Source: a virus. Taken from it: a stretch of DNA of 64,000 bases. The stretch is taken from IMG/VR virus record IMGVR_UViG_3300003690_003155, positions 32,001 to 96,000 of that record; one strand, written 5' to 3'. The position numbers were made by a program, and so were the translations under genes. The first letter of the stretch is position 1. Each line of letters begins with the position of its first letter. The notes beneath the pieces are model-generated. The model was not told the origin of the DNA and did not search any database. It worked only from the letters and a program-made list of their open reading frames with translations. This document shows positions 4,869-60,681 of this stretch, in pieces.

Positions 4869-4870
4869 TA

Positions 4871-5226: not shown

Positions 5227-5229
5227 ATT

Positions 5230-6549: not shown

Positions 6550-6564
6550 AATTATTAATTAGTA

Positions 6565-15488: not shown

Positions 15489-15494
15489 TTAATT

Positions 15495-34632: not shown

Positions 34633-35589
34633 TTATTTTAATTGTATGAACTTTGTGTCTTTAAAGCAAGTTAAATCCTTACCTCCTGCGTAAGAAATAG
34701 AGCTTCTAAGTGCCTGTTGTATTTCCTGTAATCGTACTTCATATTCTGGAGCAAGTTCTAAGTCAACTTGTTTACCTTCAACAAAATGTAATCTATCTCC
34801 ATTTTGTTTATATGAGGTACTGCCGTAATATTCTTTTGCACCACGTACGACTTTAGCAGGCGAATCTGCACACGGTGCAAAAAAAGAACCAGACATAACA
34901 CAATCAGCTCCAGCAACTAATGCTTTTGCAATATCACCAAAATGCCTACAACCACCGTCAGCCATAATTTTAGCTGATGTTTTATGTGGAGCAATTTTAA
35001 GTAATGTTGAAAACATGGGTGTTCCGAACCCTGTTTTAAATCTAGTTGTACATATGACACCGGATCCAATTCCAACTTTAACTATATCTGCTCCTGCGTC
35101 TTGCAATTGCTTAAATCCTTCAACCGTACCTACGTTACCAGCAATAACTATTACATCTTCTTGAAGATAGTTCTTAATATATTTTATCATTGCTATCACT
35201 TTAATATGATGACCGTGGGCTACGTCAATTGTAATAATGTCAATTTTATAATTATTATCTATAATTGATTGTAAGTGTTGATATGACTCTTCATTTACTC
35301 CTATACTAGCACTCACACATTTACAATGGTAGTCATTAAGTCTTTGTACTGTTTCAAATACATCTTGAAATCGATGCATGATATAAAAATAATTATCTCG
35401 ATCTAATTGTTGGCATAAATTAGGATTTATTACTGTTTCCATATTAGATGGAACAATTGGTAATTCAAATTTCCATTTACCTAATTTAAATGTAGTATCG
35501 GCTTGTTTTCTGGAGCCTAAAAGACTATACTTCGGTACTAAGAGTACATCAGAATAATCTAACTCCCCATGGAATGTCTGTTCGCTCAT
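34633..35589 (-). CDS. guaC: GMP reductase
   Basis: LDYSDVLLVP, PSNMETVI, FYIMHRF, TIDVAHGH, IAGNV, KVGIGSGVICTTR, ADGG, VEGK; no CBS domain. Confidence 0.92.
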   Translation of the reverse strand: MSEQTFHGELDYSDVLLVPKYSLLGSRKQADTTFKLGKWKFELPIVPSNMETVINPNLCQQLDRDNYFYIMHRFQDVFETVQRLNDYHCKCVSASIGVNEESYQHLQSIIDNNYKIDIITIDVAHGHHIKVIAMIKYIKNYLQEDVIVIAGNVGTVEGFKQLQDAGADIVKVGIGSGVICTTRFKTGFGTPMFSTLLKIAPHKTSAKIMADGGCRHFGDIAKALVAGADCVMSGSFFAPCADSPAKVVRGAKEYYGSTSYKQNGDRLHFVEGKQVDLELAPEYEVRLQEIQQALRSSISYAGGKDLTCFKDTKFIQLK

Positions 35590-36253
35590 ATTCTATTGGG
35601 TCTTTCATTGCGTCATTGTCTAAAAATCCTTGTATACGAGAACTACATGCGGTACAATACCCGCATGCTAATTCTTTTCCTTCGTAACAAGTCCATGTGT
35701 CTTCAAATCTCACACCATTATCTAATCCTATATTAATAATTTCTTTTTTGGATAATTGCAATAATGGTGCTTCTATTTTAATTCTATTTTTACGATTTAA
35801 AGCAGTTAAATTATTAATTTGTTCTAAAAATTCTATACTTCCGTCCCAATACCCCGCTTGACTATCTACAAGAGCTGATCCATGATATACTGTTTCTGCT
35901 CCAACAGCTTCAGCGTATGAACAGGCAATAGATAACATCATCATATTTCTAAAAGGTACATAATTAACAGTTTGTGCATCTCCTAAAACGTCTTTTGCGT
36001 GAGCGACTTTAATATTGTTGTTTGTTAAAGAGGAAGTATTAGCAATTTTTTTGAAAAATTGTATATCTAATATTTTATGTTGCTCAATATTATCATAATT
36101 AATTAATTGGAAGCCGGCGAATTGGATTTCTTTGCGATGTTTTTGACCGTAATCAAAAGTTATTGCATATATATCATCATGCTGAGCTGATACCATGCTT
36201 AATATTACAGCACTGTCTAATCCTCCTGAAACTGGTATAACTGCTTTACTCAT
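35549..36253 (-). CDS. queC: 7-cyano-7-deazaguanine synthase
   Basis: SGGLDS, FDYGQKH, YVPFRN, TWTCY...CGYCTAC zinc site. Confidence 0.96.
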   Translation of the reverse strand: MSKAVIPVSGGLDSAVILSMVSAQHDDIYAITFDYGQKHRKEIQFAGFQLINYDNIEQHKILDIQFFKKIANTSSLTNNNIKVAHAKDVLGDAQTVNYVPFRNMMMLSIACSYAEAVGAETVYHGSALVDSQAGYWDGSIEFLEQINNLTALNRKNRIKIEAPLLQLSKKEIINIGLDNGVRFEDTWTCYEGKELACGYCTACSSRIQGFLDNDAMKDPIEYERTDIPWGVRLF

Positions 36254-37034
36254 TTATTTGTAACTTAATAGTTTTAGGTTGTAATTTTTTATATTGCTCA
36301 TCCCATAAGTACTGGTATTTACCGCAATCTCTTGTCGTATGATAAGGTTTTATATGTTCATTATAATGTAAAATATAATCCTCGTGTTGTTCCATTAAAT
36401 GACTATCCCGGCGATGATAAACATTAAATCTTGGCTCGAGATCTATATAATTTCCCTGGCAATATTCATTTATTATCCATTGATCATGCTTGTCGTCATT
36501 TTTCTTATGTAACTCTAAGCATGTTTGAGTAAATTTATTTTTTCGGAGCACCTCTAAATTCATCATTATAATTCCGCAGTTTCCTGACAGTTTTTTATTT
36601 TTATATTGCATAATGCTTATATTATCTACTACTTTATCTGAGGGACATGGTTTCAATGCAATACCGATATCTTTTGTATCCATTTTGTAAATTTCTATTA
36701 AATCTAAATTTACAATTATATCAATATCTAAGTATAAAATTTTATCTTCATTAATAAGTTCCGGCATAAACAATCTTAACATTGTTGCTTCAGAGACATG
36801 ATCTAATCCCGTATACTCACGACTCCATTTTTTAAAATACTCTTGAAATGAGAAATTATCAAAGTGTGAAATCCATTTATTTAAATTATCTATTTTGTTT
36901 TTATTTTGTATATTATGAATAAGATGAACCGCGATTTCATGTTTTTTGTTTTTGTTTACAATTGAATTTATTACAACTGGTATAAATTCAATTAATTTCT
37001 TATCACTACAAAAACAGATATTTATTTTACTCAT
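36246..37034 (-). CDS. GT8-family glycosyltransferase
   Basis: RLFMPELI, KILYLDIDIIV, NCGIIMMNL, HDQWIIN, ILHY...KPY. Confidence 0.9.
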   Translation of the reverse strand: MSKINICFCSDKKLIEFIPVVINSIVNKNKKHEIAVHLIHNIQNKNKIDNLNKWISHFDNFSFQEYFKKWSREYTGLDHVSEATMLRLFMPELINEDKILYLDIDIIVNLDLIEIYKMDTKDIGIALKPCPSDKVVDNISIMQYKNKKLSGNCGIIMMNLEVLRKNKFTQTCLELHKKNDDKHDQWIINEYCQGNYIDLEPRFNVYHRRDSHLMEQHEDYILHYNEHIKPYHTTRDCGKYQYLWDEQYKKLQPKTIKLQINE

Positions 37035-38142
37035 CTTGTTGGTCTAATATAGCAGTTTCATCTAATGATTTACCATATCGGTATTTTTCATTTATAGATG
37101 ATTCTATATTAGGTAAGATAGAATTCCACAGTTTTTCATCGTTGCGCCAATTTTTATAATATCCTAATTTTTTATCTCCCATGCTATATGTAGAACCGTT
37201 TTGTTGAATAATGCCATGAGCAACGGCTACCTCTTTTAAACCAGAATATTTTTCTAACCCGGTTTTAAAATTTAAATATGCTTCTGCTTGTAAAAACGCT
37301 GGTATGAATCTATTTTTTATAGTAAGCATTCGAAGAGTAACTCCTGAGTAATTTCTACTTTCTGTTAATGCTTCGTCGCTGTCATTTGAAGCATCAGTTC
37401 TTTCTTTCTTCGCTGCCATTTGGACTAATAAGGAGGCCATGTACATAGGACCCGAACCACCAGCTTGTTGCTTGACTAAGGTAGGATGGAGTGCACCAGG
37501 ATCAGCATATGTGTGATTACTACATATAATAGTCGTACCAGTTACGGCAGCTTTAAATGTAATAATGCGCATCATGGATTTAAGCTGCTTAGCTCGGAGC
37601 CCCATGTCCATGGCTCCTTTATTAGCCTCAGCATCAGCAATTTCTTTTGATGATGCTAAATTTCCAAGAGAATCAATCGATATAATAAATTTTCCGTGAA
37701 GTTCTGGTTCTTCTTCAACCCCGTCTAAGAATGCAACGAGTTGATTACGACAGTTTTCAACAGTATCAACCGGAACATATTTTACATTTGAAACGTCAAG
37801 ACCTACGTTTTCAGCTCCTTCTTTTTCAATAGCAATTTCAGTATCAAATATTACAGGAACCATTCCTTTTTCTTGAGCTTTAGCAAGAATTTTATTTAAA
37901 ATAAAAGTTTTACCACATTGAGGCTCTCCAGCAAAAATTGTTATTCTTCCTTTTGGTACACCGCCATATAGTGAACCGGATAAAATTGAATTTAATACTA
38001 AGCATCCGGTATCGATCCACTCAGTTACATTACTTAGCGTATTTTCTTCTAGAGTAGTTGCGTTTCTATTAAGCTTCTGTAATTTAGCAAATGCTTTATC
38101 AACAAGAGTCTTATCGTACGCCTTTTCAGCATATTTTGACAT
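37027..38142 (-). CDS. uvsX: RecA-like recombinase
   Basis: IDTGCLVLN, GGVPKGRIT, GEPQCGKT, FDTE, IDSLGNL, DMG, NHTY. Confidence 0.95.
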   Translation of the reverse strand: MSKYAEKAYDKTLVDKAFAKLQKLNRNATTLEENTLSNVTEWIDTGCLVLNSILSGSLYGGVPKGRITIFAGEPQCGKTFILNKILAKAQEKGMVPVIFDTEIAIEKEGAENVGLDVSNVKYVPVDTVENCRNQLVAFLDGVEEEPELHGKFIISIDSLGNLASSKEIADAEANKGAMDMGLRAKQLKSMMRIITFKAAVTGTTIICSNHTYADPGALHPTLVKQQAGGSGPMYMASLLVQMAAKKERTDASNDSDEALTESRNYSGVTLRMLTIKNRFIPAFLQAEAYLNFKTGLEKYSGLKEVAVAHGIIQQNGSTYSMGDKKLGYYKNWRNDEKLWNSILPNIESSINEKYRYGKSLDETAILDQQDE

Positions 38143-38143
38143 A

Positions 38144-38503
38144 TTAGTCTTCGAATAATGTTACTTCAGGAATATTTTCTTCTAAGACTTCTACAGGAGG
38201 TTCTGGGTTTGGTTCTGAAACTACATTAACATTAATCTTACCAGTGTAATGCTCTAAGATTTTATCAGAAATGGTAACCTCAAGCTCGGTATACTGATCA
38301 TTAGTATAGTTAAAAATAGCAGGCTTGCCAGAAGAAAATTCAGTAAAGAATAGAGGCATAACATCTACTTTCATGTTTGACGCGTCATTGGGCGTTACCA
38401 TGATCATTGCGGGAGATTTTACTCGCATATTTGATTCCGTCTTTTCAATTAATTCTCCGAAGCAAGTCCTACCAATGCTGTCAATATATGTGATAATATC
38501 CAT
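38144..38503 (-). CDS. Hypothetical protein (possible Sm-like fold)
   Basis: IDSIGRTCFGEL...VKSPAMI beta pattern; has its own promoter. Confidence 0.7.
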   Translation of the reverse strand: MDIITYIDSIGRTCFGELIEKTESNMRVKSPAMIMVTPNDASNMKVDVMPLFFTEFSSGKPAIFNYTNDQYTELEVTISDKILEHYTGKINVNVVSEPNPEPPVEVLEENIPEVTLFED

Positions 38504-38509
38504 ATAAGT

Positions 38510-38537
38510 ATTATATTAACTATATTTTAATTTGCAA
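38510..38537 (-). promoter_or_regulatory. Sigma70-like promoter heading the uvsX-queC-guaC-gp41 operon
   Basis: TTGCAA-N16-TATAAT-N6-ATG. Confidence 0.7.
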
Positions 38538-41181
38538 GGTCAACTTTAAAGAAATCAAATAAATCTAAATTTACAGCTTGACCTGGTTTAAATGTCTTCC
38601 AGTCCACGTTTTCATAGAAGCGATCAATAACGCTATAAACAATTTTGTCGAACATTTTTTCGTAGTCTACTTTAAAATCTTTTTCAAATTCTACTGGTAA
38701 GTTATATTTAAAACCCAGCGAGTTTAAACCAAACTTATTGGGCATAGTATAAAAATAACGTATTTTATCACCAGAGCTAATATTTTCATGTTTACTGGAA
38801 ATATTATAATATTTTAAAAGGTTATTATAGTATATAGAAGACTTAACATGAATTGGAGTTCCTTTTTTTACTTTCCAATCTTTTGCGTAAATACTGTATT
38901 TTTCGTAATCTCTTACTCCCATGACAAATGCAATGTCTTTTATGGGTAATGACTTAAAAATTTCATATGTCTCTTCAAAAATTTCATTTGTAGATTTTTG
39001 ATTTTCAGTCATGATCATGTGTTCTATGATTTTTTTAACATATGGTTTGATTGCATTAGGCATTGTAGTTCTAACTACCTCAACACCAGTATATTTGAAT
39101 TTATTACATACAATTCCTTCGTCGTCTAATTTATGTAGTACGTATCGTTTTTTTTGTAAAAATACTCCCTTATCACAAATTGACTCTCTTTTAAAGATAA
39201 ACCTAGGATCATTAGTTAGTAGTGTTTCTTTTGCCCATTTCTTAATATGCACGTTTAAATCGTCTTCTATATCTTGAACAAGATTATATACCTCTTCGTT
39301 AATATTATTGTCCTTATGCAAGGATACCCCTATATGATCTAGTAAAGGAGTAATAGTACAATATAAGCTATCTGTATCGTTATATATGATTGGGTCGTTT
39401 TTTTCGAGGTTTTTATCGGTTAATCCGGTTTTCTTTTTAATATAATTTCTTAAAATAATATTACTCTGTTTTATGACATCTCTCCCAGTTAATGTAATTG
39501 ATCTTGCGATATCGCCATCAGCCATCGCCGAGTTTTTGTTACCAAAATACCCATAAATACGGTTGATAAGGATTTTTAACGTAAATTGCCCAATCCAAAA
39601 TTGATCGATATTATATTGTGTGTCTGTAATTTCTTTCTCCAGTTTAATCTTATTGTCTTTATTTTTTTCTTTTTTAAGCTTAAGACATAATTGGTGTTTT
39701 CTTTCACGAGCCATGGTCCATTGCTTCTTTTTCTTTGATCTTATTTTATAGAAGTGTTCTGTAATGCGTGGAAAAATTCCTTTGACTTTTTGTGAAAAAA
39801 GCTTTTTTGCTCTTGTGACTGCTATTTCATTTTTAGTACACCACGTGTTAAAATCCCCGTAAGACATCTCAATATCTTTGTTATTTACTGTCTTTATATA
39901 TACTTTACCGTTATCAGTACCAATAATGCTTCCTACTTTAGTTTCCGGGCTTAAGTTAAGAGTTATCATGACACTAGGGTATAGGGAATTAGCATCAAAT
40001 GATATAATATTCTTCTGAAACCCACGTTTTGGTTCACTTACATATGCACCTTCGTATTTCCCAGTACGGTCGTCATCTTTTATAAAAGTTGGAATAACAC
40101 GAGGTGGGTTTGATTTTCTTGCTTCAACAATCGCACGACCGTTAACTGTACTAATAGTACCGAGAGCAGCGTTAAATGGTGTTAACCCTATGTATGACAG
40201 CATTCTTGCTAGATCCATATACATAAGCTTAGCTTCAAGCTTTACTAACAGTCTCACATCTTGGATGTTATAGTCTACAAATTTGTCCCAGTTATCAATA
40301 GACAGTACCGCAAGGTTAGTTTCTCCTATATCTACCTTGTTCTCTCCTAGTTCTATGTGAGCTATGTTATCTAGCTTATAACTGTCTCTCATGCCCAGAC
40401 TGAAGGTTTTATACACATCGAGATAATCTAACATTGTTACACCTTCGACCACATATTTCGATGTTTGCTTACCAAAATTACCACGATACACTCGTTGATA
40501 AATTGGCTTCATAATTTCATCATGAACAGGCGAAAACCGGCGCGTAGTATCTTCTCCTAGTACATTTCTAACTCGATTAATTACATACGGAATATCAAAA
40601 ACCTCACTAGCCCACCCAGATAAAATATCAGGCCGAACCTCACAATAAAAGTCTAAAAATTTCTGTAATAACTCGGTTTCGGTCTTACAATAAACATATT
40701 TTACGTCGTTAGATTTTGGTTTATATTTGTTAATACCCCATGTAAAGTACATTTTTTCTACAGTATCGTAAACTGTAATTACGTTAATAGGATGGCTTGC
40801 TTCATCTGGTTTTGGAAACTCATCAGGGGAATATGTTTCAATATCAAAGAACCAAATTTTTAGCGGAAATTTACTAAAATTATCATTTTCATGAACCTCC
40901 CAAAACCTGTCAACTAAAAATTGTTGATACGGGGAAATATTCTCATAAATTTTATGATCACTAAGATCTTCAATTTTTCTTCTTCTATCTAATTCACTAT
41001 TAGAATTGATTCTGCGTAATTTTGTACCATATAATGATATTGCATCATGACGATTTGAATTTGTTTCACAATAGAAATATGGCTGATACGGGCAATCAGT
41101 TTCAATTCTGTTTCCGTCTTCATCCCATGTGTAAAGCCGCATTACACGCTGGTTTGGTATGTATGCTAAATTTCTATACAC
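38527..41181 (-). CDS. gp43: Family B DNA polymerase
   Basis: Exo FDIET, FDIPY, YNIQDV; Pol SFDANSLYPS, KILINRIYGYFG, YNDTDS, KKRY; GTG start; uninterrupted. Confidence 0.98.
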   Translation of the reverse strand: MYRNLAYIPNQRVMRLYTWDEDGNRIETDCPYQPYFYCETNSNRHDAISLYGTKLRRINSNSELDRRRKIEDLSDHKIYENISPYQQFLVDRFWEVHENDNFSKFPLKIWFFDIETYSPDEFPKPDEASHPINVITVYDTVEKMYFTWGINKYKPKSNDVKYVYCKTETELLQKFLDFYCEVRPDILSGWASEVFDIPYVINRVRNVLGEDTTRRFSPVHDEIMKPIYQRVYRGNFGKQTSKYVVEGVTMLDYLDVYKTFSLGMRDSYKLDNIAHIELGENKVDIGETNLAVLSIDNWDKFVDYNIQDVRLLVKLEAKLMYMDLARMLSYIGLTPFNAALGTISTVNGRAIVEARKSNPPRVIPTFIKDDDRTGKYEGAYVSEPKRGFQKNIISFDANSLYPSVMITLNLSPETKVGSIIGTDNGKVYIKTVNNKDIEMSYGDFNTWCTKNEIAVTRAKKLFSQKVKGIFPRITEHFYKIRSKKKKQWTMARERKHQLCLKLKKEKNKDNKIKLEKEITDTQYNIDQFWIGQFTLKILINRIYGYFGNKNSAMADGDIARSITLTGRDVIKQSNIILRNYIKKKTGLTDKNLEKNDPIIYNDTDSLYCTITPLLDHIGVSLHKDNNINEEVYNLVQDIEDDLNVHIKKWAKETLLTNDPRFIFKRESICDKGVFLQKKRYVLHKLDDEGIVCNKFKYTGVEVVRTTMPNAIKPYVKKIIEHMIMTENQKSTNEIFEETYEIFKSLPIKDIAFVMGVRDYEKYSIYAKDWKVKKGTPIHVKSSIYYNNLLKYYNISSKHENISSGDKIRYFYTMPNKFGLNSLGFKYNLPVEFEKDFKVDYEKMFDKIVYSVIDRFYENVDWKTFKPGQAVNLDLFDFFKVDLAN

Positions 41182-41187
41182 GCGCTT

Positions 41188-41216
41188 AGTATAATGAAAA
41201 TTAAGAAAAAAATCAA
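41188..41216 (-). promoter_or_regulatory. Sigma70-like promoter for gp43
   Basis: TTGATT-N17-TATACT-N6-GTG. Confidence 0.7.
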
Positions 41217-42445
41217 CTGATTTCGTTTTTTAGATTAATTAATTTTCGGCGTTTATCTCCATATGGGAATGAGTAAAGCTCAGTATAAAAATCAATATTA
41301 TCTTCCATCCATCTATTGTTCATATATCCACGAGCTCTCTTAACTTCTTTTATATATTTCTTATAATCCTTAGTTAAATATTCTATTTTATTCACCAAAT
41401 CATCTCCAGTTTTAAATTTATGAAATGCGGAATCATATGTACATAAATCCTGACAAATGCACGGAATTCCAAAGGCACAAGATTCAATAAATTTTAAATT
41501 ACTCTTAGCTTTATTAAAATTACTATCTTCTAACGGTGCATAAAAAATAGTCGGATTAAATTTAGTAATATATTCTGGATAATCGACAAGACTTGTCCAT
41601 GTCCAATATTCGATTTTTTTTGTCTGAACTAAATCTCTAAGAGATAGAGGGAATCCTCCTACAAAAACCCATGTAAATTTATCTACAGTTTTTCTTATTG
41701 TATCAATAATGTGATGGAAATCATCTCGTTGTCCGACTTTGTTATCAACGTCAAAATGCGCACCACTTCCGCAATAAACAATACGAGGCTTACTTTTATA
41801 TTTTTGATAATTTTCGCGTATAGTATTAAAATTAAAAAATCGGTCCATCCAAAATTTAGGAATAAAATTAGGTATTATTGTAACGTTTTTATTACCAGTT
41901 TTCTCAATATAATATTCTTTCATGAATTTATTTGTAACAGTAATTTCGTCGCACATTTGCATAATCTCCATACTTGTTTTTCTGATGTTTGGATCATCAA
42001 AAGCAAATTTAAATTTATTATAATCAGGAATATCTTCTTTAAAAATTATATCGTCAATTTCATATATAATTTTAAAGTTAAGTTCTTTGGATAATTCTTT
42101 TAACCATTTTATATAACTAAATTGAGCGTCTGTAGCTTGTCTCTGTATGCGAACTGTCTTGACCCCTCTATAAAAGTTTTTATCTCCTATCATTACAGTA
42201 CCGCCTTGTACATTTACCTTGTTACCATAACAATTAAGTAGTAATTCAGGCCATATCATCCTCCAATGACCACACCCAGAATAATCAGCATAAAAATTTA
42301 AACCACGCGGTAAATCTGGCGCCTTATGACCAATCTCGCTCGTCGCTATTTGAGGCGGAGTAGGTAGAGCATTTACAAGAGGGTTACTTATTGACACCGG
42401 TGAAAACGGTAATCGGTTTGTTGTATACTGAAACGGTGTAATCAT
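41213..42445 (-). CDS. GT-B-like glycosyltransferase
   Basis: SGCGHWRM, IYEIDD, CDEITVT, IPNF, APLEDSNFNKAKSNLKFIE, GIPCI. Confidence 0.85.
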   Translation of the reverse strand: MITPFQYTTNRLPFSPVSISNPLVNALPTPPQIATSEIGHKAPDLPRGLNFYADYSGCGHWRMIWPELLLNCYGNKVNVQGGTVMIGDKNFYRGVKTVRIQRQATDAQFSYIKWLKELSKELNFKIIYEIDDIIFKEDIPDYNKFKFAFDDPNIRKTSMEIMQMCDEITVTNKFMKEYYIEKTGNKNVTIIPNFIPKFWMDRFFNFNTIRENYQKYKSKPRIVYCGSGAHFDVDNKVGQRDDFHHIIDTIRKTVDKFTWVFVGGFPLSLRDLVQTKKIEYWTWTSLVDYPEYITKFNPTIFYAPLEDSNFNKAKSNLKFIESCAFGIPCICQDLCTYDSAFHKFKTGDDLVNKIEYLTKDYKKYIKEVKRARGYMNNRWMEDNIDFYTELYSFPYGDKRRKLINLKNEIS

Positions 42446-42454
42446 TATAAAAAT

Positions 42455-45321: not shown

Positions 45322-45774
45322 TTATGTATATAATTCTTGGTCGTAGTCCTTATTAGGAGCCTTATTAGAAGCATCCTCCTGACTTACTAGTTCTCCATAA
45401 ACTTGTTGTTGATAGTCGGTAATTGTTTGTCGATATTTTTTTTCTTTTTTTATTCTATTAATAAATGCATGATAGGCAATTGTCGTAAAATAAGAAAATG
45501 GGTTTGAAGGAGAGTCAATTCTAAATTTTTTATTCTTTACGGCCGCAACCATTTTTACTACTGCGTCGCCAATCATGTCATCTTTATAGCTATAATTTAT
45601 AAAGTTCGGCGAATAGCTTAATCCAACTGCAATTTTATAAACTGATGTAGCTAGATCATCTATTAAATCGTCTGTTACATAATAGTCTTTTAAGTGTTGT
45701 AAGAAATCTTTTGGATTAACGTAGTAAGTTTTTTTATTAGGTTTTTTTGATTTTTTTATTATTCTGGGCTTCAT
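45322..45774 (-). CDS. gp55: Late-transcription sigma factor
   Basis: YYVNPKDF, IAVGLSYSPNFINYSYKDDMIGDA, NPFSYFTTIAYHAFINRIKKEKK. Confidence 0.95.
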   Translation of the reverse strand: MKPRIIKKSKKPNKKTYYVNPKDFLQHLKDYYVTDDLIDDLATSVYKIAVGLSYSPNFINYSYKDDMIGDAVVKMVAAVKNKKFRIDSPSNPFSYFTTIAYHAFINRIKKEKKYRQTITDYQQQVYGELVSQEDASNKAPNKDYDQELYT

Positions 45775-47197
45775 TGTATTGTGTAAAATTATAATTTATA
45801 TGCTCGCTGTCATATAATGCTAAGCGTTGTTCTATATGGCGGCGACCATATCGTAAATTATCAGCGATATCAAAGATTATAAGTTCTTTTTTATCAATAT
45901 GCAACCGCAACCCGCGGCCTATACTTTGTATTATTTTGATTTTTGCCTTACCACCGCTAGCAAATACTATATAATGTAAATTTTTTATATTAATGCCTGT
46001 AGAGAATATTTTTGATATAGCGACAACTACTATGTTACTTTGTTCTTCCATCAGGGCTTGTATTTTCTTACGTTCATCTACGTCTACTTCTCCCCTAATA
46101 AAATATATTTGTTTAGTCTTACAGGAATTCTGTAATGTATTCATTAATATTTCACCATGCTCTATATATTCAATTAATATTAATACGTTGTTATCTAGCT
46201 TATTTGAAAGCTTTGCTAATAAATTATTTCTAAAGCAATTTTTACGTATAAATTCATTTTCTTGTAAATAATAAGCGTTAGAATTATTACCGTGATATAT
46301 TTCTGCCGAAGATGTATCGTAATTTAATTCTAAGACATGAACCTTAGCTGGAACAACATATTTTTCTTCTCTTAGTTCGTAAGCTTTTTTTTCAAATAAT
46401 TGAGGTCCTATTTTACCAAATATATTCCATTTATCTAATAACTCGTCTGGTAAGGTCCCGGTGAAGCCGAATCGATGGGATGTATCTATTCTCTTAAGAA
46501 TATTATTTATTTTATTTCCTCTTCTTACTTTATGTACTTCATCTACGATAAGAAAGTCTATATGCTTTATCCATGATATATCTTGCTTTGAACTTTGTAA
46601 AATACCTAAATTAGCAATAATAACATTATTAGATAAATTTAATTTGTTTTTTCCTGTATATATAGTAGTAGAAAAGGAAACATTGTATTGCTTAAAATCA
46701 GACATAGTTTGATCGACTAATCCTAAGTCTGGAACTATAACTAATCCTTTAAAATTTTTACTATAATTTTTGTAATAAAATTCTAACAATCCCGCCATTG
46801 TAAGAGTCTTACCACCTGCAGTCGCGAGGATTACAGTACCTCTCCCTATGTCGATGCATTTGTTGATTATATCCTGTTGATATTCTCTATATTCTAAACT
46901 TAAATTATACTTAATAATATTATCTTTACGTAATGTAGGTACCAGTACGTTTTTTATTTCTTTTGTAAAATCAATTGTTATATCTTTTGTTTTACAGAAT
47001 TTTGTAATTTCTATTAATAATCCAACATCAGTTTTTCCTTGTTTAGTAATTACATAAGTTCGCTGTGGTACGAACCTACCAAACCTTCTTTGGAAATGTG
47101 CCGCTTCATTTTTTACACTAAAATGTTCTCTAATAATATCTAACTCAGGTCCCTCTATTACTGCTTGAGAGTTTGAATTTAATGTTATATTAATCAT
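45737..47197 (-). CDS. uvsW: SF2 DNA helicase
   Basis: REYQ, ATAGGKT, DEVH, GFTGT, FSTGINI, QSIGRGLR. Confidence 0.96.
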   Translation of the reverse strand: MINITLNSNSQAVIEGPELDIIREHFSVKNEAAHFQRRFGRFVPQRTYVITKQGKTDVGLLIEITKFCKTKDITIDFTKEIKNVLVPTLRKDNIIKYNLSLEYREYQQDIINKCIDIGRGTVILATAGGKTLTMAGLLEFYYKNYSKNFKGLVIVPDLGLVDQTMSDFKQYNVSFSTTIYTGKNKLNLSNNVIIANLGILQSSKQDISWIKHIDFLIVDEVHKVRRGNKINNILKRIDTSHRFGFTGTLPDELLDKWNIFGKIGPQLFEKKAYELREEKYVVPAKVHVLELNYDTSSAEIYHGNNSNAYYLQENEFIRKNCFRNNLLAKLSNKLDNNVLILIEYIEHGEILMNTLQNSCKTKQIYFIRGEVDVDERKKIQALMEEQSNIVVVAISKIFSTGINIKNLHYIVFASGGKAKIKIIQSIGRGLRLHIDKKELIIFDIADNLRYGRRHIEQRLALYDSEHINYNFTQYNEAQNNKKIKKT

Positions 47198-47598
47198 TGA
47201 GTCTCAAGCTTTATTAACTCTACTAAGTTTCTTATATCATTCGTAGCGAAGCTTATATTTTTATATATATTTTCTAAGAAATTAATAACAAGTGCTTCAT
47301 TTTCAATGCTTTGATCTATAATTTTTATTTCTTTTTTATTTTGTACTGCTCTTTCTGCTATAGATCTATTTACTCGAATAGGTTCTTTATCTTGATAAGC
47401 GGTTATATATTCATCAATAGTAGAAGAGCGCTTAAACTTTAAATTATTTAATTTAATTTTATGATTAATTAATCTAGCAGCCCATTTATGTTTATTAGAG
47501 ATTAATTGCTCTTGAGTAGAAGTTACGTCTAATCTAGAAAGATTCGTATCTACTCTTGCTTCATCTAAATACTGATTGATAATATCACCAATCTCCAT
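47194..47598 (-). CDS. uvsY: Recombination mediator (UvsY-like)
   Basis: 134 aa helical protein next to uvsW; KHKW and FATNDIRNLVELIKLE resemble the UvsY C-terminus. Confidence 0.7.
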   Translation of the reverse strand: MEIGDIINQYLDEARVDTNLSRLDVTSTQEQLISNKHKWAARLINHKIKLNNLKFKRSSTIDEYITAYQDKEPIRVNRSIAERAVQNKKEIKIIDQSIENEALVINFLENIYKNISFATNDIRNLVELIKLETQ

Positions 47599-47604
47599 TT
47601 ATTT

Positions 47605-47638
47605 ATTATAGTCTTTTATTTGGAAAATCAACTAAATA
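47605..47638. promoter_or_regulatory. Back-to-back sigma70-like (-) and late (+) promoters
   Basis: Minus strand: TTGATT-N15-TATAAT-N6-ATG(47598). Plus strand: TAAATA(47633-47638)-N5-ATG(47644). Confidence 0.65.
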
Positions 47639-47643
47639 TATAT

Positions 47644-48486
47644 ATGAGTAACGCTCTAGAGCACATATTAAATAAAATTAACGAAGCTCAATTAATTCAA
47701 GATCCATGGCCATATTTGTTCATCGAGGAGTATGTACCGGAGTCATTTTATAAAAAACTCATTAACGAAACCACTAGTATCCATTTCCAAATTGGAGCGA
47801 GTCGTCGTCAAATACAAGAAGTATTAAATACCTGGTACGATATTTCCCCTATATCGAGTAATTATGGTGGTGAGACATTACAGGAGTATTGTGATATTGT
47901 TTCTAGTAAAGACTTGCAGGATGCTATTTACCTTAAATTTGCTGATTTTCTAAAAAAATATGGGCATGTTAATTATGTTAATAAGTCACAAGATATAGTT
48001 GGTGTTGTAACTGAATATGATGTTATAACTAGAGGGTGGAAATATCCAATACACTCAGATATAAAGAAAAAACTTTTTACTCATTTGCATTACTTAGCGG
48101 TTGAAGGTGATGATAAATCTATAGGAACACGATTGTATCCTAATACAGGAAAAGGAAACTCATTAGATTTTGATAAAGATTGTTTGATGACGCTACCTTA
48201 TCTTCCTAATAGTGTATTAATATTTTGCCCGAGTAATGTGAACGAACATAGAACTAATCATGCAGTATGTCATAGATCTAAACAAACAAACTATAGAAGA
48301 TCTCTTCACACATTTTATCACTGTGAGTTCCCGGCACCACCATTAGATCAAATAGATAAATGGGCATTAGTACCTGAAAATAAAAATTTAGGATATTATT
48401 ATACTGTTGAGAAGGAATATATGTACAATCGCTCTCGTCTCGCAAAAGAGCAAGTAAGTATATTTGGATCTGTTAAATTATTTTAA
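47644..48486 (+). CDS. 2OG-Fe(II) oxygenase-like protein
   Basis: DPWPYL, PIHSD (HxD), LHYL, GTRLY, YLPNS, TNHAV, RRSL. Start moved from TTG 47620 to ATG 47644. Confidence 0.75.
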   Translation: MSNALEHILNKINEAQLIQDPWPYLFIEEYVPESFYKKLINETTSIHFQIGASRRQIQEVLNTWYDISPISSNYGGETLQEYCDIVSSKDLQDAIYLKFADFLKKYGHVNYVNKSQDIVGVVTEYDVITRGWKYPIHSDIKKKLFTHLHYLAVEGDDKSIGTRLYPNTGKGNSLDFDKDCLMTLPYLPNSVLIFCPSNVNEHRTNHAVCHRSKQTNYRRSLHTFYHCEFPAPPLDQIDKWALVPENKNLGYYYTVEKEYMYNRSRLAKEQVSIFGSVKLF

Positions 48487-49116
48487 GTCTCTTACAAAAT
48501 CATAGAACTCTTGTCTCGTAAGATCTCCTTTATCTAAAAATGCACCTGACATTCTAGCAGTTTTCATTGTACTATTGTGCTTAACTCCTCTAACACACGC
48601 ACACATATGATCTGCTTCTACTAGAACCGCAACTCCTTTATTTTGTTCAGCCACAAGATCAATGTGTTTATGAATTTGCATAGTTAAATTCTCTTGTACT
48701 TGTGGCCTACGCGCAAACCATTCAACGATTCTATTCAACTTACTGAGTCCGATAACCTTTCCTTCTTTACCAGGTATATAAGATACATGAGCAAAACCGA
48801 CAAATGGTAAGTGATGATGAGAGCAAAAAGAATGTACTGTAATATTACCTTGAAAAACTAAACCATCGTACTTATCGACGTTATCAAACGCTGTTATTTT
48901 AGGAGGCTCGTTATAACACCCTTCCGCTAGGTCATTGACAAATGCTTTTGCCACCCGTCTCGGTGTGTCTGCGCTATTAGGATCGTTTCTCCAGTCGAAC
49001 CCTAAGGCATCCATATATCCCTCGTACGCCTTTGCAGCGCTATTAATAATATTTTCTTTTTCTTCTCGAGTTCTAGGTCGATTTTGATTGGCGTATTGAA
49101 GTAAAACCTCATTCAT
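48478..49116 (-). CDS. folE: GTP cyclohydrolase I
   Basis: TPRRVAK, SFCSHHHLPF, GLSKLNR, RRPQVQE, HMCACVRGV. Start placed at ATG 49116 from promoter spacing. Confidence 0.97.
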   Translation of the reverse strand: MNEVLLQYANQNRPRTREEKENIINSAAKAYEGYMDALGFDWRNDPNSADTPRRVAKAFVNDLAEGCYNEPPKITAFDNVDKYDGLVFQGNITVHSFCSHHHLPFVGFAHVSYIPGKEGKVIGLSKLNRIVEWFARRPQVQENLTMQIHKHIDLVAEQNKGVAVLVEADHMCACVRGVKHNSTMKTARMSGAFLDKGDLTRQEFYDFVRDLK

Positions 49117-49123
49117 ATGAATC

Positions 49124-49162
49124 ATTATAATATAATTGAATTATAAATCAACTAATTAAATA
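49124..49162. promoter_or_regulatory. Back-to-back sigma70-like (-) and late (+) promoters
   Basis: Minus strand: TTGATT-N16-TATAAT-N7-ATG(49116). Plus strand: TAAATA(49157-49162)-N5-GTG(49168). Confidence 0.65.
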
Positions 49163-49167
49163 ATTAT

Positions 49168-50076
49168 GTGGATTATGTTATTTTAAATAATGGTTGTTCT
49201 TTTTCTGCAGATTGGTCTTCGCATCGATATGGCGATAAAATCGGTGAGGACCATATATTAAGTGAACGTGACCAATTTGGCCGACGTAATCGGCCCCCAA
49301 AAGTCGTGGCACGCTCAAAATCATGGAATTGGACTACGTATTGTAAATACTTATCTGGAAAAATATATAATATTGCGATGGGTGGTACAGGTATTGAATC
49401 AGATAGATTAGCTAGTTTTATTAATGACGTTGATACTGGGCGCACCCACCGTAAGAACCTATATACATTTCAGGACAATTTTGAACCGACGGTACCATCA
49501 CCGGGTCCAGGTCAGCGTAACTCGATCCCAGCAGATCTTAAGTTAACACATTTTATTTATCAGCTGCCGTCATTATGTCGGCAAGTCATCCATACAACAT
49601 TAAATTATGAAGATTTTTTAAAGGCGCCTATAGGTTTACGTGAGGCGTGGGAGGATTATAGAAAATCTTTATCAGAGCCGTATGATCATGCAGCAGAAAA
49701 ACATAAATTTAAAAACAAAGAAGATTTATGGCGCAATGTTGCAGCACAATCATCTAATTTAGAAAAATACGTAACAAAGGCATTAAGTTCAATCCATGAA
49801 AGCGTAACCATGGTCCGGGAGAAATGGCCGGATATAAAAATTATACTATTAAAATATACACATTCACATGAAAATAATGGAGTAATAATGGAATTTAGTA
49901 AAGATTTTTATAAAAATGATGTACGTAAGTACTGTGATGATAATAATGTTACGTATATATATGAACATACCTTTAATACCAATTGGTTTGCCGAGCATGG
50001 GTTAGCAAATGACCGTCGCCACCCTAATGAAGCCGGAGCGAGACTTATAGCGAGTAAAGTTAAAGAATATTTATGA
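49168..50076 (+). CDS. SGNH/GDSL-like hydrolase or acyltransferase
   Basis: Block I NGCSFS, YNIAMGG, block V DRRHPNEAG. Confidence 0.7.
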   Translation: MDYVILNNGCSFSADWSSHRYGDKIGEDHILSERDQFGRRNRPPKVVARSKSWNWTTYCKYLSGKIYNIAMGGTGIESDRLASFINDVDTGRTHRKNLYTFQDNFEPTVPSPGPGQRNSIPADLKLTHFIYQLPSLCRQVIHTTLNYEDFLKAPIGLREAWEDYRKSLSEPYDHAAEKHKFKNKEDLWRNVAAQSSNLEKYVTKALSSIHESVTMVREKWPDIKIILLKYTHSHENNGVIMEFSKDFYKNDVRKYCDDNNVTYIYEHTFNTNWFAEHGLANDRRHPNEAGARLIASKVKEYL

Positions 50077-50192
50077 GAAAGATATGGTTTAAAATTAGAA
50101 TTAGATATGCGCAATTAAAGCAGTGGCTTTATTGTAAAATTAAAAAAGTAAAAAACAAGCCTGATGATCCTAATATATATCCTTTTTGGTAG
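50073..50192 (+). CDS. Small basic peptide (39 aa)
   Basis: MRKIWFKIRIRYAQLKQWLYCKIKKVKNKPDDPNIYPFW; ATGA overlap with the upstream gene; exactly fills the gap; below the ORF-track cutoff. Confidence 0.7.
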   Translation: MRKIWFKIRIRYAQLKQWLYCKIKKVKNKPDDPNIYPFW

Positions 50193-50197
50193 TTAGC

Positions 50198-50893
50198 GTG
50201 AAATATTGTATATTAAATAATGGGTGCTCTCATTCAGCAAAGACTATATCTACTCGAACTTCTTATTGTGATTTTTTACCTGGAGATGTATATAATATCG
50301 CATCACCAAATTCTGCGATTGAATGTCTTACATTAAAAGATTTTTTATATGAAAACAACGATATAATGTTAACACATTATATATATCAAATACCATCTCC
50401 GATTAGACAGTTACAATATGCAGGATTAAGCGACGATGGATTTTCGAAAACACCTATGGATGTAGTAGGTGATGTACAAAAACATATTAATATAATTTGT
50501 AATCATTACCGCAGCCAAGCAAAGTCTCATGGGACTTGGAATTCCCGGAGTCCAACCCCGATAACTAAAATTATACTTTTACGGTATGAAGAAACTAAAT
50601 ACCCTCTCATTTATGAATTTGGTAATAGTGATATTACGGATATTGAAAAAAATGATCCACTTGAGTATTGGTTTTATATTTGCGTTAGATTTTTTACGTC
50701 AGCTTTTTATAGAGACTTATTAGATTTAAGACGTGGTTTCCATAGAACAAATTTTTATAATGTTAGATATATATATGAAAATGATTTTAATACAGAACAG
50801 TTTAAGACTAACGGGTGGGCTAATGATGAATATGGTCATCCAAACGAAATAGGCGCTAAAATAATAGCTGATAAAATTAAGGAGTATATATAA
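50198..50893 (+). CDS. SGNH-like paralogue
   Basis: NGCSHS, LTHYIYQIPS, DEYGHPNEIG. GTG 50198 aligns with the paralogue start. Confidence 0.7.
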   Translation: MKYCILNNGCSHSAKTISTRTSYCDFLPGDVYNIASPNSAIECLTLKDFLYENNDIMLTHYIYQIPSPIRQLQYAGLSDDGFSKTPMDVVGDVQKHINIICNHYRSQAKSHGTWNSRSPTPITKIILLRYEETKYPLIYEFGNSDITDIEKNDPLEYWFYICVRFFTSAFYRDLLDLRRGFHRTNFYNVRYIYENDFNTEQFKTNGWANDEYGHPNEIGAKIIADKIKEYI

Positions 50894-50908
50894 AGAGTAA
50901 AATATAAC

Positions 50909-50936
50909 TTGATAAAGAGAGTTTTTAATATATAAT
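50909..50936 (+). promoter_or_regulatory. Sigma70-like promoter for queD-queE
   Basis: TTGATA-N16-TATAAT-N6-ATG. Confidence 0.7.
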
Positions 50937-50942
50937 AAATAT

Positions 50943-51443
50943 ATGAGTTTTATTAGTACGAAAATTCTTGAACTTGGTAGCTGTGCTTTTCGGCAACCTA
51001 ATGCAGAATCTCACTGTAGATATCTACACGGTTATAGACTAACAGCTAAGTTTTGGTTTAAAGCTAACCAGTTAGATGAGAACAATTGGGTAGTAGATTT
51101 CGGCAGTCTCGGTCACTTAAAAAAGCTTCTTAAGGATCAATTTGATCACATTACAGTTATAGATAAAAATGATCCTTATATTGATAGTTTTAAAGGCCTC
51201 GCTGATGCCGGAGTATTAGATTTACGAGTAATGGATGGAGTTGGTATCGAAAAATTTGCTCAATATTGCTTTAAAGTAAGCAATGACTTTATTTCAGAAC
51301 AATCTGAAGGGAGATGTTGGGTGGATAAAGTTGAAGTTTTTGAACATGAAAACAATTCTGCTATATATACAGAGAATATTACTACTACGATGAGATTTGC
51401 TGCTGATCCAGAAGCTGGATACCAAAACGCATGCGTTTGTTAA
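50943..51443 (+). CDS. queD: 6-carboxytetrahydropterin synthase
   Basis: SHCRYLHGY, WVVDFG, QFDH, GIEKFA, VFEHENNSA. Confidence 0.9.
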   Translation: MSFISTKILELGSCAFRQPNAESHCRYLHGYRLTAKFWFKANQLDENNWVVDFGSLGHLKKLLKDQFDHITVIDKNDPYIDSFKGLADAGVLDLRVMDGVGIEKFAQYCFKVSNDFISEQSEGRCWVDKVEVFEHENNSAIYTENITTTMRFAADPEAGYQNACVC

Positions 51444-51447
51444 TGAA

Positions 51448-51612
51448 ATGGGTAAAGGAAGCAAAAGAAGACGCAAAGAGGATATAGGAGAAATTGTTTC
51501 CAATTGGGATGAAATCGATTGGGGATATATAATGTTTACTAAAGACGAAGAAGCCGAAAAAGAAAAAAATGAGCGAAAAGGAATCAGAGATACTAAACGT
51601 CGACGGAAATGA
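51448..51612 (+). CDS. Small charged protein (54 aa)
   Basis: MGKGSKRRRKEDIGEIVSNWDEIDWG...; ATG 4 nt after the queD stop. Confidence 0.6.
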   Translation: MGKGSKRRRKEDIGEIVSNWDEIDWGYIMFTKDEEAEKEKNERKGIRDTKRRRK

Positions 51613-52339
51613 TACAATTTATCTATCAGATGATAAGATATTTTATACAGTAGAAGGAGAAGGCGAACTTATAGGCTACCCTTCTGTGTTTATGCGACTT
51701 TCGATGTGTAACTTAACATGTCAAGGATTTGCGTCAGAAGCCTCACCTCATGGATGTGATAGTTTTATTTCTTGGAGGGTAAAAAACAAACTTACATTAA
51801 AAGAGGTACTTGATTTTCTCGAGAGTAGTGGCTATAAAGATCATTTATACAACGGTGCTATATTAAAGATTACTGGAGGTGAGCCCTTAGTACAGCAAAA
51901 GGCATTATTACGCTTTTTAAGTTATATGGAAGTTGAATGGGGATGGGTTCCTCGTATAGATTTTGAAACTAATGCAACTATTTTACCTGATAAAGAATGG
52001 ACGAGAGTAGCTGCTACGTTTACCACATCCCCTAAAATGAGTAATAATGGTGACCCTGTAGATAGACGATATAAACCTACAGTATTAGAGTGGCATGCTC
52101 TAATGGGATCTGGTTTTAAGTTTGTTATTAATCAAGAATCAGATATAGATGAAGTTTTTGGTAAATATGTTGTACCGTTTGATATACCTACAGGCAGGGT
52201 ATGGTTAATGCCTTGTTGCGGTAGTAGAGAAGAGCATATAGAAAAGGCTCCTATGGTTGCTGAACTAGCTAAGAGGTATAGATTTAACTTTAGCCCACGA
52301 CTTCATTTATTAGTATGGGATATGGCTTTAAAAGTTTAA
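51569..52339 (+). CDS. queE: 7-carboxy-7-deazaguanine synthase (radical SAM)
   Basis: IFYTVEGEG, FMRLSMCNLTC...GCDS (extended Cys motif), ITGGEP, ETN, TSPK, SPRLH. Confidence 0.94.
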   Translation: MSEKESEILNVDGNDTIYLSDDKIFYTVEGEGELIGYPSVFMRLSMCNLTCQGFASEASPHGCDSFISWRVKNKLTLKEVLDFLESSGYKDHLYNGAILKITGGEPLVQQKALLRFLSYMEVEWGWVPRIDFETNATILPDKEWTRVAATFTTSPKMSNNGDPVDRRYKPTVLEWHALMGSGFKFVINQESDIDEVFGKYVVPFDIPTGRVWLMPCCGSREEHIEKAPMVAELAKRYRFNFSPRLHLLVWDMALKV

Positions 52340-52356
52340 TTAAATAAATATTAAAT

Positions 52357-53040
52357 ATGAGAATTGCAATTAGCGGGACTGGGTGTCAAGGTAAAACTAC
52401 TCTTATAAGAGATTTTCTTGATCAATGGCCTTCTTATACTACATCAAAAAAAACTTATAGAGATGTTATTAAAGACACCAACCTCTCTCATTCATCAAAA
52501 ACAAATGAAGACACACAATGGGATATTCTTAATTTTATGATTGATGAATTACAAAAAACTAAAAAAGGAGATAAAGTTATTTTCGATAGATGTCCTTTAG
52601 ATAATTTAGTTTATAGTATCTGGTCAAATGAAAAGAAGAATTCTGATATTACACAGAAATTTATTAAAAAGTGTATACCATTAGTTAGAGAAACCTTAAG
52701 ATTTATTGATATTATATTTTTTACTCCCATTACTAAAGTAGCTCCCGTAGAAATAGAAGAAGATGAGTTAAGAGACTCTGATTTAGAGTTTATAGAAGAA
52801 GTTGATCATTTATTTAAAGCAATTCATAGAGACCATCAGACTAATTCTAACAGTAATTTCTTTGTTGATGATGATAAGCCTGCTATGCTTGAAGTATTTG
52901 GAAATAGAAGAGAGCGTATAGAAATAATTAAATTATATCTTGACGAAGATGGTGACTTGATACAGCCAGGTAATATTATTGATGAAGAAACATTACATGA
53001 AATGGAAAAGATGAAGAAAGCCTTTAATGTAAAAGATTAA
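52357..53040 (+). CDS. P-loop nucleotide kinase-like protein (AAA_28 / dNMP kinase-like)
   Basis: MRIAISGTGCQGKTT, FDRCPLDNLVY, DELR. Confidence 0.8.
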   Translation: MRIAISGTGCQGKTTLIRDFLDQWPSYTTSKKTYRDVIKDTNLSHSSKTNEDTQWDILNFMIDELQKTKKGDKVIFDRCPLDNLVYSIWSNEKKNSDITQKFIKKCIPLVRETLRFIDIIFFTPITKVAPVEIEEDELRDSDLEFIEEVDHLFKAIHRDHQTNSNSNFFVDDDKPAMLEVFGNRRERIEIIKLYLDEDGDLIQPGNIIDEETLHEMEKMKKAFNVKD

Positions 53041-53048: not shown

Positions 53049-53240
53049 ATGACTGATTATGATAACTTATGTGAGAGGTATATGACGAGACAAGTTCGGT
53101 CTTTTTATCCTCGTAAATTTGAACTTTCACAAGAATTTATTGAAGCATTTAAATTAGAATATTCAAGATTATCTGAATCGGGTCAAAATAGAAGAACTCT
53201 CTTAGAGAGAATACGTAAAGCATTATCCTTTCATCTTTAA
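53049..53240 (+). CDS. Hypothetical late protein (63 aa)
   Basis: TAAATA-N5-ATG. Confidence 0.65.
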   Translation: MTDYDNLCERYMTRQVRSFYPRKFELSQEFIEAFKLEYSRLSESGQNRRTLLERIRKALSFHL

Positions 53241-58467: not shown

Positions 58468-58498
58468 TTTTTTTGAAGAGTTAATATAAAATATTAAT

Positions 58499-59419: not shown

Positions 59420-59422
59420 ACT

Positions 59423-60678: not shown

Positions 60679-60681
60679 TTA

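Follow-up and report, generated by a model that had tools for sequence, protein, structure and literature searches.

An apparently DpdA-less 7-deazaguanine pathway of an uncultured T4-like phage is probably one half of a split DpdA3-type DNA modification system

Here, we analysed a stretch of 64,000 nucleotides (in the following: the window) from the IMG/VR virus record IMGVR_UViG_3300003690_003155, which carries genes for the synthesis of 7-cyano-7-deazaguanine (preQ0). The source contig is linear, viral and 122,091 bp long, with the window covering its bases 32001-96000, and has a CheckV completeness of 61%. Judged by gene content (a family-B polymerase, UvsX, UvsW, UvsY, gp32, gp46/47, a DnaB-like helicase, terminase, tail sheath and tube), the phage is an uncultured T4-like myovirus; its gp43 shares at most 31% identity with that of any isolate phage, so that no cultured relative is available. 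The G+C content in the window is 25-41%. An earlier reading of the window made from its letters only (the sequence-only reading) had described the pathway as lacking DpdA, the enzyme that inserts deazaguanines into DNA, and had proposed that a GMP reductase (GuaC) and a nucleotide kinase serve a replacement of guanine at the nucleotide level. The following genes are concerned:

33993-34631, minus strand: stand-alone class-II (Ntn, N-terminal nucleophile) glutamine amidotransferase (GATase), 212 amino acids (GATase_6, E = 2.4e-10; GATase_7, E = 1.3e-7)
34633-35589, minus strand: GMP-reductase-like protein (GuaC type 2) of the IMPDH/GMPR family, 318 amino acids (PF00478, E = 2.6e-60, residues 10-315)
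35549-36253, minus strand: QueC, preQ0 synthase (PF06508, E = 3e-58; TIGR00364, 173.6 bits at a cut-off of 150.3)
48478-49125, minus strand: FolE, GTP cyclohydrolase I (PF01227, E = 1.6e-47; phrog_2197, E = 1.8e-59)
50943-51443, plus strand: QueD, 6-carboxytetrahydropterin synthase (PF01242, E = 3.1e-17; phrog_2389, E = 2.7e-35)
51569-52339, plus strand: QueE, radical S-adenosylmethionine (SAM) 7-carboxy-7-deazaguanine synthase (phrog_2076, E = 2.8e-41; Fer4_12, E = 1.2e-4)
52357-53040, plus strand: Kin1, P-loop nucleoside/nucleotide kinase, 227 amino acids (AAA_28, E = 1.6e-13; phrog_2107, E = 1.7e-15)

FolE, QueD, QueE and QueC constitute the full set for preQ0 synthesis, and all four are located inside the window. 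FolE catalyses the first step of the pathway and uses up GTP. QueC additionally matches the Gat-QueC-like phrog_10428, and QueE is 37% identical to a haloviral QueE. The guaC-like gene overlaps queC by 41 nucleotides and Kin1 starts 17 nucleotides past the stop of queE; the four precursor genes, the overlap and the kinase, all noted in the sequence-only reading, are thus confirmed. Relatives of the phage were gathered through gp43. One of them, G006, has a genome of 200,819 bp with terminal repeats, a CheckV completeness of 100% and a gp43 of 85% identity, and contains all deazaguanine genes of the window at the same places. Five contigs of more distant relatives (completeness 13-58%) encode a gp43 of about 46% identity. 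A nucleotide search with the deazaguanine cluster against isolate phages returned nothing but a 71-nucleotide stretch of QueD.

The tRNA-guanine transglycosylase (TGT) family to which DpdA relates was searched for by several routes. The Pfam TGT model PF01702 gave no match at E ≤ 10 in the window or in the whole contig, while it matched in all 14 control genomes. Pfam scans of 135 open reading frames (ORFs; 26 + 62 + 47) of the contig revealed neither TGT nor DUF6610, and PHROGs 19058 and 20335, both matched by the DpdA3 of Campylobacter phage CP220, had no match on the contig either. A purpose-built DpdA3 hidden Markov model (HMM) run against all six frames of the contig reached a best E-value of 0.42 (positive control: 1.3e-147), and tblastn with the DpdA3, the kinase and the HD protein of CP220 found nothing there (best E = 0.3). 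The absence of a TGT or DpdA noted for the 64 kb hence stands and extends to the entire 122-kb contig. Unassigned ORFs near FolE were considered as hidden DpdA candidates and rejected. The ORF at 47620-48486 (288 amino acids) could not be assigned to a family of Pfam, PHROG or NCBIfam; its single weak tblastn match was uninformative. The ORFs at 49168-50076 and 50186-50893, which stand in tandem between FolE and QueD, are paralogues of each other with common N- and C-terminal motifs and a weak likeness to GDSL lipases (E = 8.6e-4); some relatives have both, and for the second no match among phages was obtained. As other genes replace these ORFs in the complete relative G006, they are not part of the core. 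Together with a kinase and a GuaC that are genuine genes, the missing DpdA would fit a phage in which the G pool is lowered by GuaC and gp43 is supplied with a deaza-nucleotide phosphorylated by the kinase.

The end of the contig speaks against such a phage. Portal and gp23, the major capsid gene, are located close to this end; the contig stops 175 bp past gp23, and its last 123 nucleotides (minus strand) encode the last 41 amino acids of a QueF, which are 88% identical to the QueF of G006 (E = 9e-23). Among 34 viral loci with DpdA3 relatives, we found one (L115) whose contig stems from another assembly and is 100.000% identical to the end of the window's contig over an overlap of 1,389 bp (G000:120703-122091). 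The assembly break coincides exactly with the start of a second module, which comprises the following genes:

L115:8313-9263: QueF (QueF_N, E = 1.9e-32; QueF, E = 2.6e-18)
L115:7760-8338: Kin2, second kinase (AAA_28)
L115:7408-7758, plus strand: p116, ORF of 116 amino acids (also L085:11896-12246, minus strand)
L115:6834-7430: DpdN-like formyltransferase (Formyl_trans_N, E = 1.4e-10; 42% identical to DpdN YP_010114479.1, E = 2.9e-43)
L115:5998-6837: DpdA3

On the overlapping contig, DpdA3 lies approximately 2.3-3.1 kb past the end of the window's contig; on the scale of the window, the second module would start about 26 kb, and DpdA3 about 28 kb, past base 64000. The same arrangement is observed in G006, of which we scanned the 132 ORFs without a close counterpart on the window's contig: directly after gp23 follow QueF, an AAA_28 kinase, a 116-amino-acid ORF, a formyltransferase and a 272-amino-acid ORF without Pfam family, and a purine phosphoribosyltransferase (PRT) is encoded 5 kb beyond. 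Both modules occupy the same places in G006 as in the window's contig and the overlapping contig, and the module of DpdA3 and kinase is retained in 29 of the 29 related loci that reach past DpdA3. With DpdA3 just past the contig end, we therefore regard the DpdA-less pathway as an artefact of an incomplete contig that breaks inside queF, and a DpdA-less phage, largely refuted by the overlapping contig and by G006, has become highly improbable. The sequence-only reading had allowed for a DpdA outside the window, and this caveat was borne out. Its argument from the absence of DpdA to a nucleotide-level replacement is in turn void, given that the lineage encodes DpdA3 beside QueF and a DpdN-like formyltransferase.

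Assignment of the transglycosylase itself relies on several lines of evidence. The 272-amino-acid ORF of G006 matches phrog_19058 (E = 5.1e-44) and is 41% identical to the DpdA3 of CP220 (YP_009169190.1, E = 4e-50), while the DpdA3 of L115 is 45% identical to that of a Flavobacterium phage and 38% identical to that of CP220. The Pfam TGT model itself does not match this DpdA3, nor did PF01702 match in any of 11 related records tested, including the complete G006, and a comparison of the DpdA3 sequence with solved structures yielded nothing useful. A structural model built on 21 homologues (pLDDT 88.5, pTM 0.86) was more informative: the top 50 matches in the PDB are all TGTs (best E = 2e-8, probability 1.00, TMq about 0.60), so that the predicted model assigns a TGT fold to DpdA3. 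Two aspartates, D56 (in LLDNS) and D222 (in DTSNP), are invariant in the 21 DpdA3 sequences; they may correspond to the catalytic aspartate pair of TGTs. A DpdA3-like ORF with 25% identity to the L115 protein and a weak DUF6610 match is also present in Bacillus phage BSTP12 (L177:4902-5690, annotated as 'NadR'), where it belongs to a cluster of Gat-QueC, QueD and FolE just ahead of DNA polymerase I and has a P-loop ORF directly upstream. The identity of the transglycosylase bears on the question of whether the Que genes might serve tRNA, i.e. supply queuosine for host or phage tRNAs, instead of DNA. We consider this hardly credible, as the enzyme is DpdA3 and not a bacterial Tgt (the 11 related records all lack a PF01702 match) and sits with a DpdN-like formyltransferase, as in the phage with proven formyl-dPreQ1 (fdPreQ1) in its DNA.

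The latter, the phage vB_FspM_immuto_2-6A of Flavobacterium, offers a direct comparison. Both phages have FolE, QueD, QueE, QueC, QueF, DpdA3, a DpdN-type formyltransferase, an AAA_28 kinase and a purine PRT, with identities of 45% for DpdA3, 42% for DpdN, 46% for QueF, 34% for the kinase and 29% for the PRT. The local gene order is also similar, reading DpdA3, DpdN, (p116), kinase, QueF in the lineage studied here and DpdA3, x, DpdN, kinase, QueF in the Flavobacterium phage. Unlike the latter, the system described here is distributed over two distant modules of a T4-like genome with a family-B polymerase; it additionally contains the GuaC-like gene, a stand-alone GATase, a second kinase beside QueE and the 116-amino-acid ORF, whereas the PRA-PH-like hydrolase of the Flavobacterium phage was not found. 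The DNA of the Flavobacterium phage consists of dA, dC, dT and formyl-dPreQ1 instead of dG (PMC10516641). According to the same source, DpdA3 phages including this one have completely modified genomes, and from the complete modification in all three such genomes its authors propose that all known 7-deazaguanine DNA modifications are post-replicative; members of the DpdA2 subfamily, by comparison, modify less than 0.1% of G. The sequence-only reading had held that a dpdA elsewhere in the genome combined with partial, motif-specific modification would speak against its proposal. The lineage does encode a dpdA elsewhere, but partial modification is not to be expected, as DpdA3 goes with complete replacement (PMC10516641).

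A second point of comparison is CP220, likewise a T4-like myovirus with a DpdA3 and with a phrog_2107 kinase immediately following it, similar to the DpdA3-adjacent kinase of the lineage studied here. Its pathway halts early, with 2'-deoxy-7-amido-7-deazaguanosine (dADG) as the product (PMC10516641); neither QueF nor DpdN is listed for it in supplement DS1 of that paper, and an HD-kinase fusion is encoded upstream of its DpdA3. CP220 also corrects a premise of the sequence-only reading, namely that fletcherviruses carry dADG without a recognised DpdA: CP220 is a Firehammervirus whose DpdA3 has been recognised since 2023 (PMC10516641), and fletcherviruses replace dG with deoxyinosine (dI), as stated in an abstract.

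Taken together, we are fairly confident that the window represents the preQ0-making half of a DpdA3-type 7-deazaguanine DNA hypermodification system that is split into two modules, with the second half past the contig end. The genes, their synteny and the contig overlap are directly observed; the steps would be as follows. FolE, QueD, QueE and QueC would convert GTP to preQ0, with the stand-alone glutaminase probably supplying QueC with ammonia. QueF would reduce preQ0 to preQ1, DpdA3 would swap guanine in the DNA for the deazaguanine, and the formyltransferase would yield 7-(formylamino)methyl-7-deazaguanine. Because DpdA3, QueF and a DpdN-type protein correspond to the gene content of the Flavobacterium phage, the window's phage should replace most or all of its G with 7-(formylamino)methyl-7-deazaguanine. 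Some points weigh against this interpretation. DpdA3 is absent from the window's own contig, the link being a perfect overlap of 1,389 bp plus synteny instead of one continuous sequence, and the window's phage may formally have a different variant at that spot. The final base is deduced from gene content, and the stand-alone GATase could instead indicate an archaeosine-like product. Moreover, tests of DpdA3 in E. coli failed (PMC10516641), and no DpdA3 is known from biochemical work to act on DNA.

The GATase deserves attention in its own right. With its N-terminus MCGIFG, it represents, as a gene of its own, the 'Gat' part of Gat-QueC, a point absent from the sequence-only reading. The class-II glutaminase with N-terminal cysteine and the QueC recall the Gat-QueC of Enterobacteria phage 9g-type systems (DpdA1, dG+), but in contrast to the latter the two are separate, unfused ORFs here, with GuaC (in distant relatives a different ORF) between them, and DpdA3 takes the place of DpdA1. 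Seven of seven closer loci (GuaC identity 61-92%) and G006 retain the block of QueC, GuaC, GATase, glycosyltransferase and DnaB. In the distant relatives, the frame of UvsX and QueC on one side and GATase, glycosyltransferase and DnaB on the other is retained; in three of the five, the GuaC slot is occupied by a different ORF, which has 460-495 amino acids, lies on the opposite strand and belongs to no family.

Kinases are conserved companions of the system. Of 40 related loci, with identities down to 41%, 37 have QueE upstream of Kin1, and Kin2 belongs to the module of DpdA3 in 29 loci out of 34 (five are cut off at or near DpdA3). The kinase pointed out in the sequence-only reading is hence supported as a conserved member of the system, whereas GuaC, absent from five of five distant contigs, is no core gene. 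Kin1 is 24-29% identical to Kin2 (its paralogue, 24%), the CP220 kinase and the Flavobacterium-phage kinase. The sequences of Kin1 and Kin2 have no relatives among solved structures, but a model of Kin1 (pLDDT 84) has NadR ribosylnicotinamide kinase, deoxyadenosine kinases, thymidylate kinases and AbmG as nearest folds (E = 2e-5 to 1e-3, TM 0.5-0.6). The model places Kin1 among nucleoside or nucleotide kinases, its substrate not being readable from the fold. A small P-loop kinase beside DpdA3 is also found in loci L174 and L175, in CP220 (gp057) and in the Flavobacterium phage, and phage phiST (CGPG_00066) and Chryseobacterium phage MA9V-3 each have one of the AAA_18 type. Thus, in DpdA3 clusters of at least five lineages a small kinase adjoins the transglycosylase, often accompanied by a PRT or a nucleoside triphosphate (NTP) pyrophosphohydrolase and sometimes by a GMP reductase. 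Exclusivity of this linkage to DpdA3 had to be dropped, since a DpdA2-type mycobacteriophage cluster has a kinase beside FolE too; this cluster with its annotated transglycosylase was the sole comparison outside DpdA3, a region of a Pseudomonas phage being mostly unannotated and thus uninformative.

The PRT and the hydrolases complete the picture. By its matches (1vdm, E = 5.5e-18; xanthine-guanine phosphoribosyltransferase, XGPRT, as well), the PRT belongs to the 6-oxopurine type and resembles archaeal purine PRTs. In the Flavobacterium phage, the PRT stands directly upstream of FolE, and in loci L120 and L121, DpdA3, kinase and PRT lie within 3.7 kb. NTP-pyrophosphohydrolase-type genes occur in three DpdA3 clusters, as MazG in phiST, as a PRA-PH-like protein in the Flavobacterium phage and as an HD-kinase fusion in CP220. 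Among the ORFs of the window's contig and G006, the MazG, HD and dGTPase families are not represented, where remote homologues could escape detection. The strongly conserved p116 (44 invariant columns in 10 sequences), located between the formyltransferase and Kin2, has no Pfam match even at E ≤ 10. A protein atlas points to clusters that bear DUF1599 (score 0.96; 34-59% of their members have the family), which we treat as a lead only. Profile comparisons of p116 with MazG-like proteins from two further DpdA3 phages were negative (probability 0.5% and 0.1%).

But, why should a DNA transglycosylase travel with kinases and a PRT? TGT-type exchange frees one guanine per site, and guanine is poorly soluble and competes in the reaction. 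If every G of a 200-kb genome with 31% G+C is exchanged, much free guanine would therefore accumulate. We tentatively suggest that the PRT, the two kinases and, where present, GuaC handle this guanine as a sink or recycling route: the PRT would make GMP, the kinases would return GMP to GTP for FolE, and the GMP reductase would drain the excess to IMP. Removal of guanine would feed the pathway, drive the exchange to its end and restore the purine balance of a genome with 31% G+C. The 6-oxopurine type of the PRT, its position upstream of FolE in the Flavobacterium phage and the proximity of DpdA3, kinase and PRT in L120 and L121 support this idea, as does the occurrence of GuaC-family genes, in spite of their rarity in phages (70 of 50,697 records), in three DpdA3 lineages, in the two others at 3 kb and about 9 kb from DpdA3. 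This reading accommodates all companions but the pyrophosphohydrolases. Points against it are that the fold search with Kin1 does not tell a GMP kinase from a nucleoside kinase, and that GuaC is distributed unevenly: an IMPDH-family gene was found in none of the five more distant relative contigs (13-58% complete), GuaC is absent from three of five other DpdA3 fragments, and four of five other GuaC-bearing viral records have no QueC.

GuaC may thus be a general purine gene. The protein matches the bacterial GMP reductase 1ypf of B. anthracis over its full length (E = 3e-73), its catalytic cysteine loop GIGSGVICTTR aligning with GIGPGKVCITK of 1ypf, and forms an IMPDH/GMPR barrel without CBS insert; its scores remain below the NCBI equivalog cut-offs (NF003966, 309.6 versus 344 bits; TIGR01306, 279.8 versus 465.65). 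The best records in the phage collection (42-43% identity) are labelled as Bacillus, Listeria, Staphylococcus and Enterococcus phages. GuaC-like genes are also present in phages without Que genes, such as Bacillus phage G, Caulobacter Cr30, Thermus phiYS40 and Xanthomonas XacN1. As GuaC is missing from the distant relatives and found in such phages, we conclude that it is an accessory of some lineages and not a core component. It is quite conceivable, if somewhat short of an even chance, that it balances purines in an A+T-rich genome (GMP to IMP to AMP) and was inserted between queC and the GATase gene by chance, without relation to DNA modification, in agreement with the other ORF in its slot in distant relatives and with the low G+C content of the window. 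The tight, partly overlapping block of QueC, GuaC and GATase in all seven closer loci speaks against a chance insertion, and so does the fact that GuaC-family genes, rare as they are in phages, reappear at a distance of 3-10 kb from DpdA3 in two other lineages.

The same companions also invite a different explanation, in which DpdA3 works at the nucleotide level: the base would be exchanged on dGMP, or the PRT would make a deazaguanine ribonucleotide, the kinases would take the product towards the triphosphate for incorporation by the polymerase, and GuaC and PRT would remove guanine nucleotides. Base replacement prior to replication is known from the hydroxymethylcytosine (hmC) of T4 and from Z-genomes with PurZ, MazZ and DatZ. 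As in such pathways, kinases and, in other DpdA3 phages, NTP pyrophosphohydrolases stand beside the base-changing enzyme, a small P-loop kinase adjoining DpdA3 in every lineage inspected, and an incorporated nucleotide would account for 100% replacement. The failed DpdA3 assays in E. coli and the detection of the ADG nucleoside in infected cells (PMC10516641) point in the same direction, as does the silence of that paper's main text on kinases and PRTs; the acidic DpdA3 proteins (pI 5.0-6.1) are a weak hint that proves nothing, as gp32 has a pI of 4.7. In contrast to the pre-replicative pathways, however, neither MazG or HD proteins nor any other enzyme for the removal of dGTP were found in this lineage, p116 is unlike MazG-like proteins, and the fold of DpdA3 is that of enzymes acting on polynucleotides. 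Furthermore, the kinase beside FolE in the DpdA2-type cluster, from a subfamily with its trace level of modification (PMC10516641), shows that complete or pre-replicative replacement does not follow from the presence of a kinase. We thus regard a nucleotide-level DpdA3 as unlikely, and similarly doubt that complete G replacement in DpdA3 phages proceeds even partly at the nucleotide level, via a product of DpdA3 or PRT, the kinases and the polymerase.

Two further genes accompany QueD, QueE and Kin1:

53049-53240, plus strand: conserved ORF of 63 amino acids without Pfam or PHROG family
53223-54023, minus strand: PhoH-like ATPase (PF02562, E = 6.9e-49)

The 63-amino-acid ORF follows Kin1 with 77-96% identity in closer relatives and 33-47% in three more distant loci, while the PhoH-like gene travels with the three genes and is found beside QueE and Kin1 in most of 40 loci, in shifting position.

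Several other features were observed in passing. G006 contains a second QueD/PTPS-like gene (PF01242, E = 1.5e-22), followed by a methyltransferase and then by an unassigned ORF and an MptE-like protein (L087:3993-4547, 4567-5253 and 5827-6747), a cluster within the part of the genome that the window's contig lacks; as DpdL of phiST is likewise QueD-like, the second QueD-like gene could represent another deazaguanine-tailoring step. The portion of G006 missing from the window's contig (about 40% of the genome) further includes, among others, a ClpB-like chaperone, a class-II ribonucleotide reductase and a carbamoyltransferase (L086:4926-7301, L086:10292-12448 and L087:10504-12294). On the window's contig, outside the window, lie a DUF366 protein (L003:14636-15223, plus strand; E = 4.6e-21; 91% conserved with G006) and a twitch-domain radical-SAM protein (L003:10719-11771, minus strand; 73% conserved with G006). 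Inside the window, a glutaredoxin and an Fe-S cluster assembly protein stand side by side at 15150-16064 and possibly support phage radical-SAM enzymes, and a DHH/DHHA1 phosphoesterase with a weak RecJ-like match (31071-31967) adjoins the DnaB-like helicase. Glycosyltransferase (GT) and sugar-nucleotide genes are unusually numerous (window 33295-33996, 36246-37034, 41213-42445 and 54071-64000; L003:1854-8075), comprising GT2, GT4, GT8, GT10 and GT25, epimerases, dehydratases, a cytidylyltransferase and a sulfotransferase; several of these sit between replication genes, and the GT at 33295-33996 adjoins the GATase even in distant relatives.

In summary, an apparently DpdA-less pathway could be traced to an incomplete contig. 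A widespread clade of uncultured T4-like phages carries a full system of DpdA3, QueF and DpdN, the combination of genes associated with a total exchange of G for formyl-dPreQ1; in the phage of the window, GuaC, a split glutaminase and a duplicated kinase are extras. The conserved association of DpdA3 with a kinase, a PRT and in some cases a GMP reductase is unexplained in print: the words 'kinase' and 'phosphoribosyl' do not occur in the main text of the paper that defined DpdA3 (PMC10516641), and we found no discussion of such companions in the literature searched. These companions give rise to a hypothesis for the 100% replacement achieved by DpdA3, either through removal and recycling of guanine or through a step at the nucleotide level, and may also account for the failure of DpdA3 expressed by itself in E. 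coli, as reported in PMC10516641.

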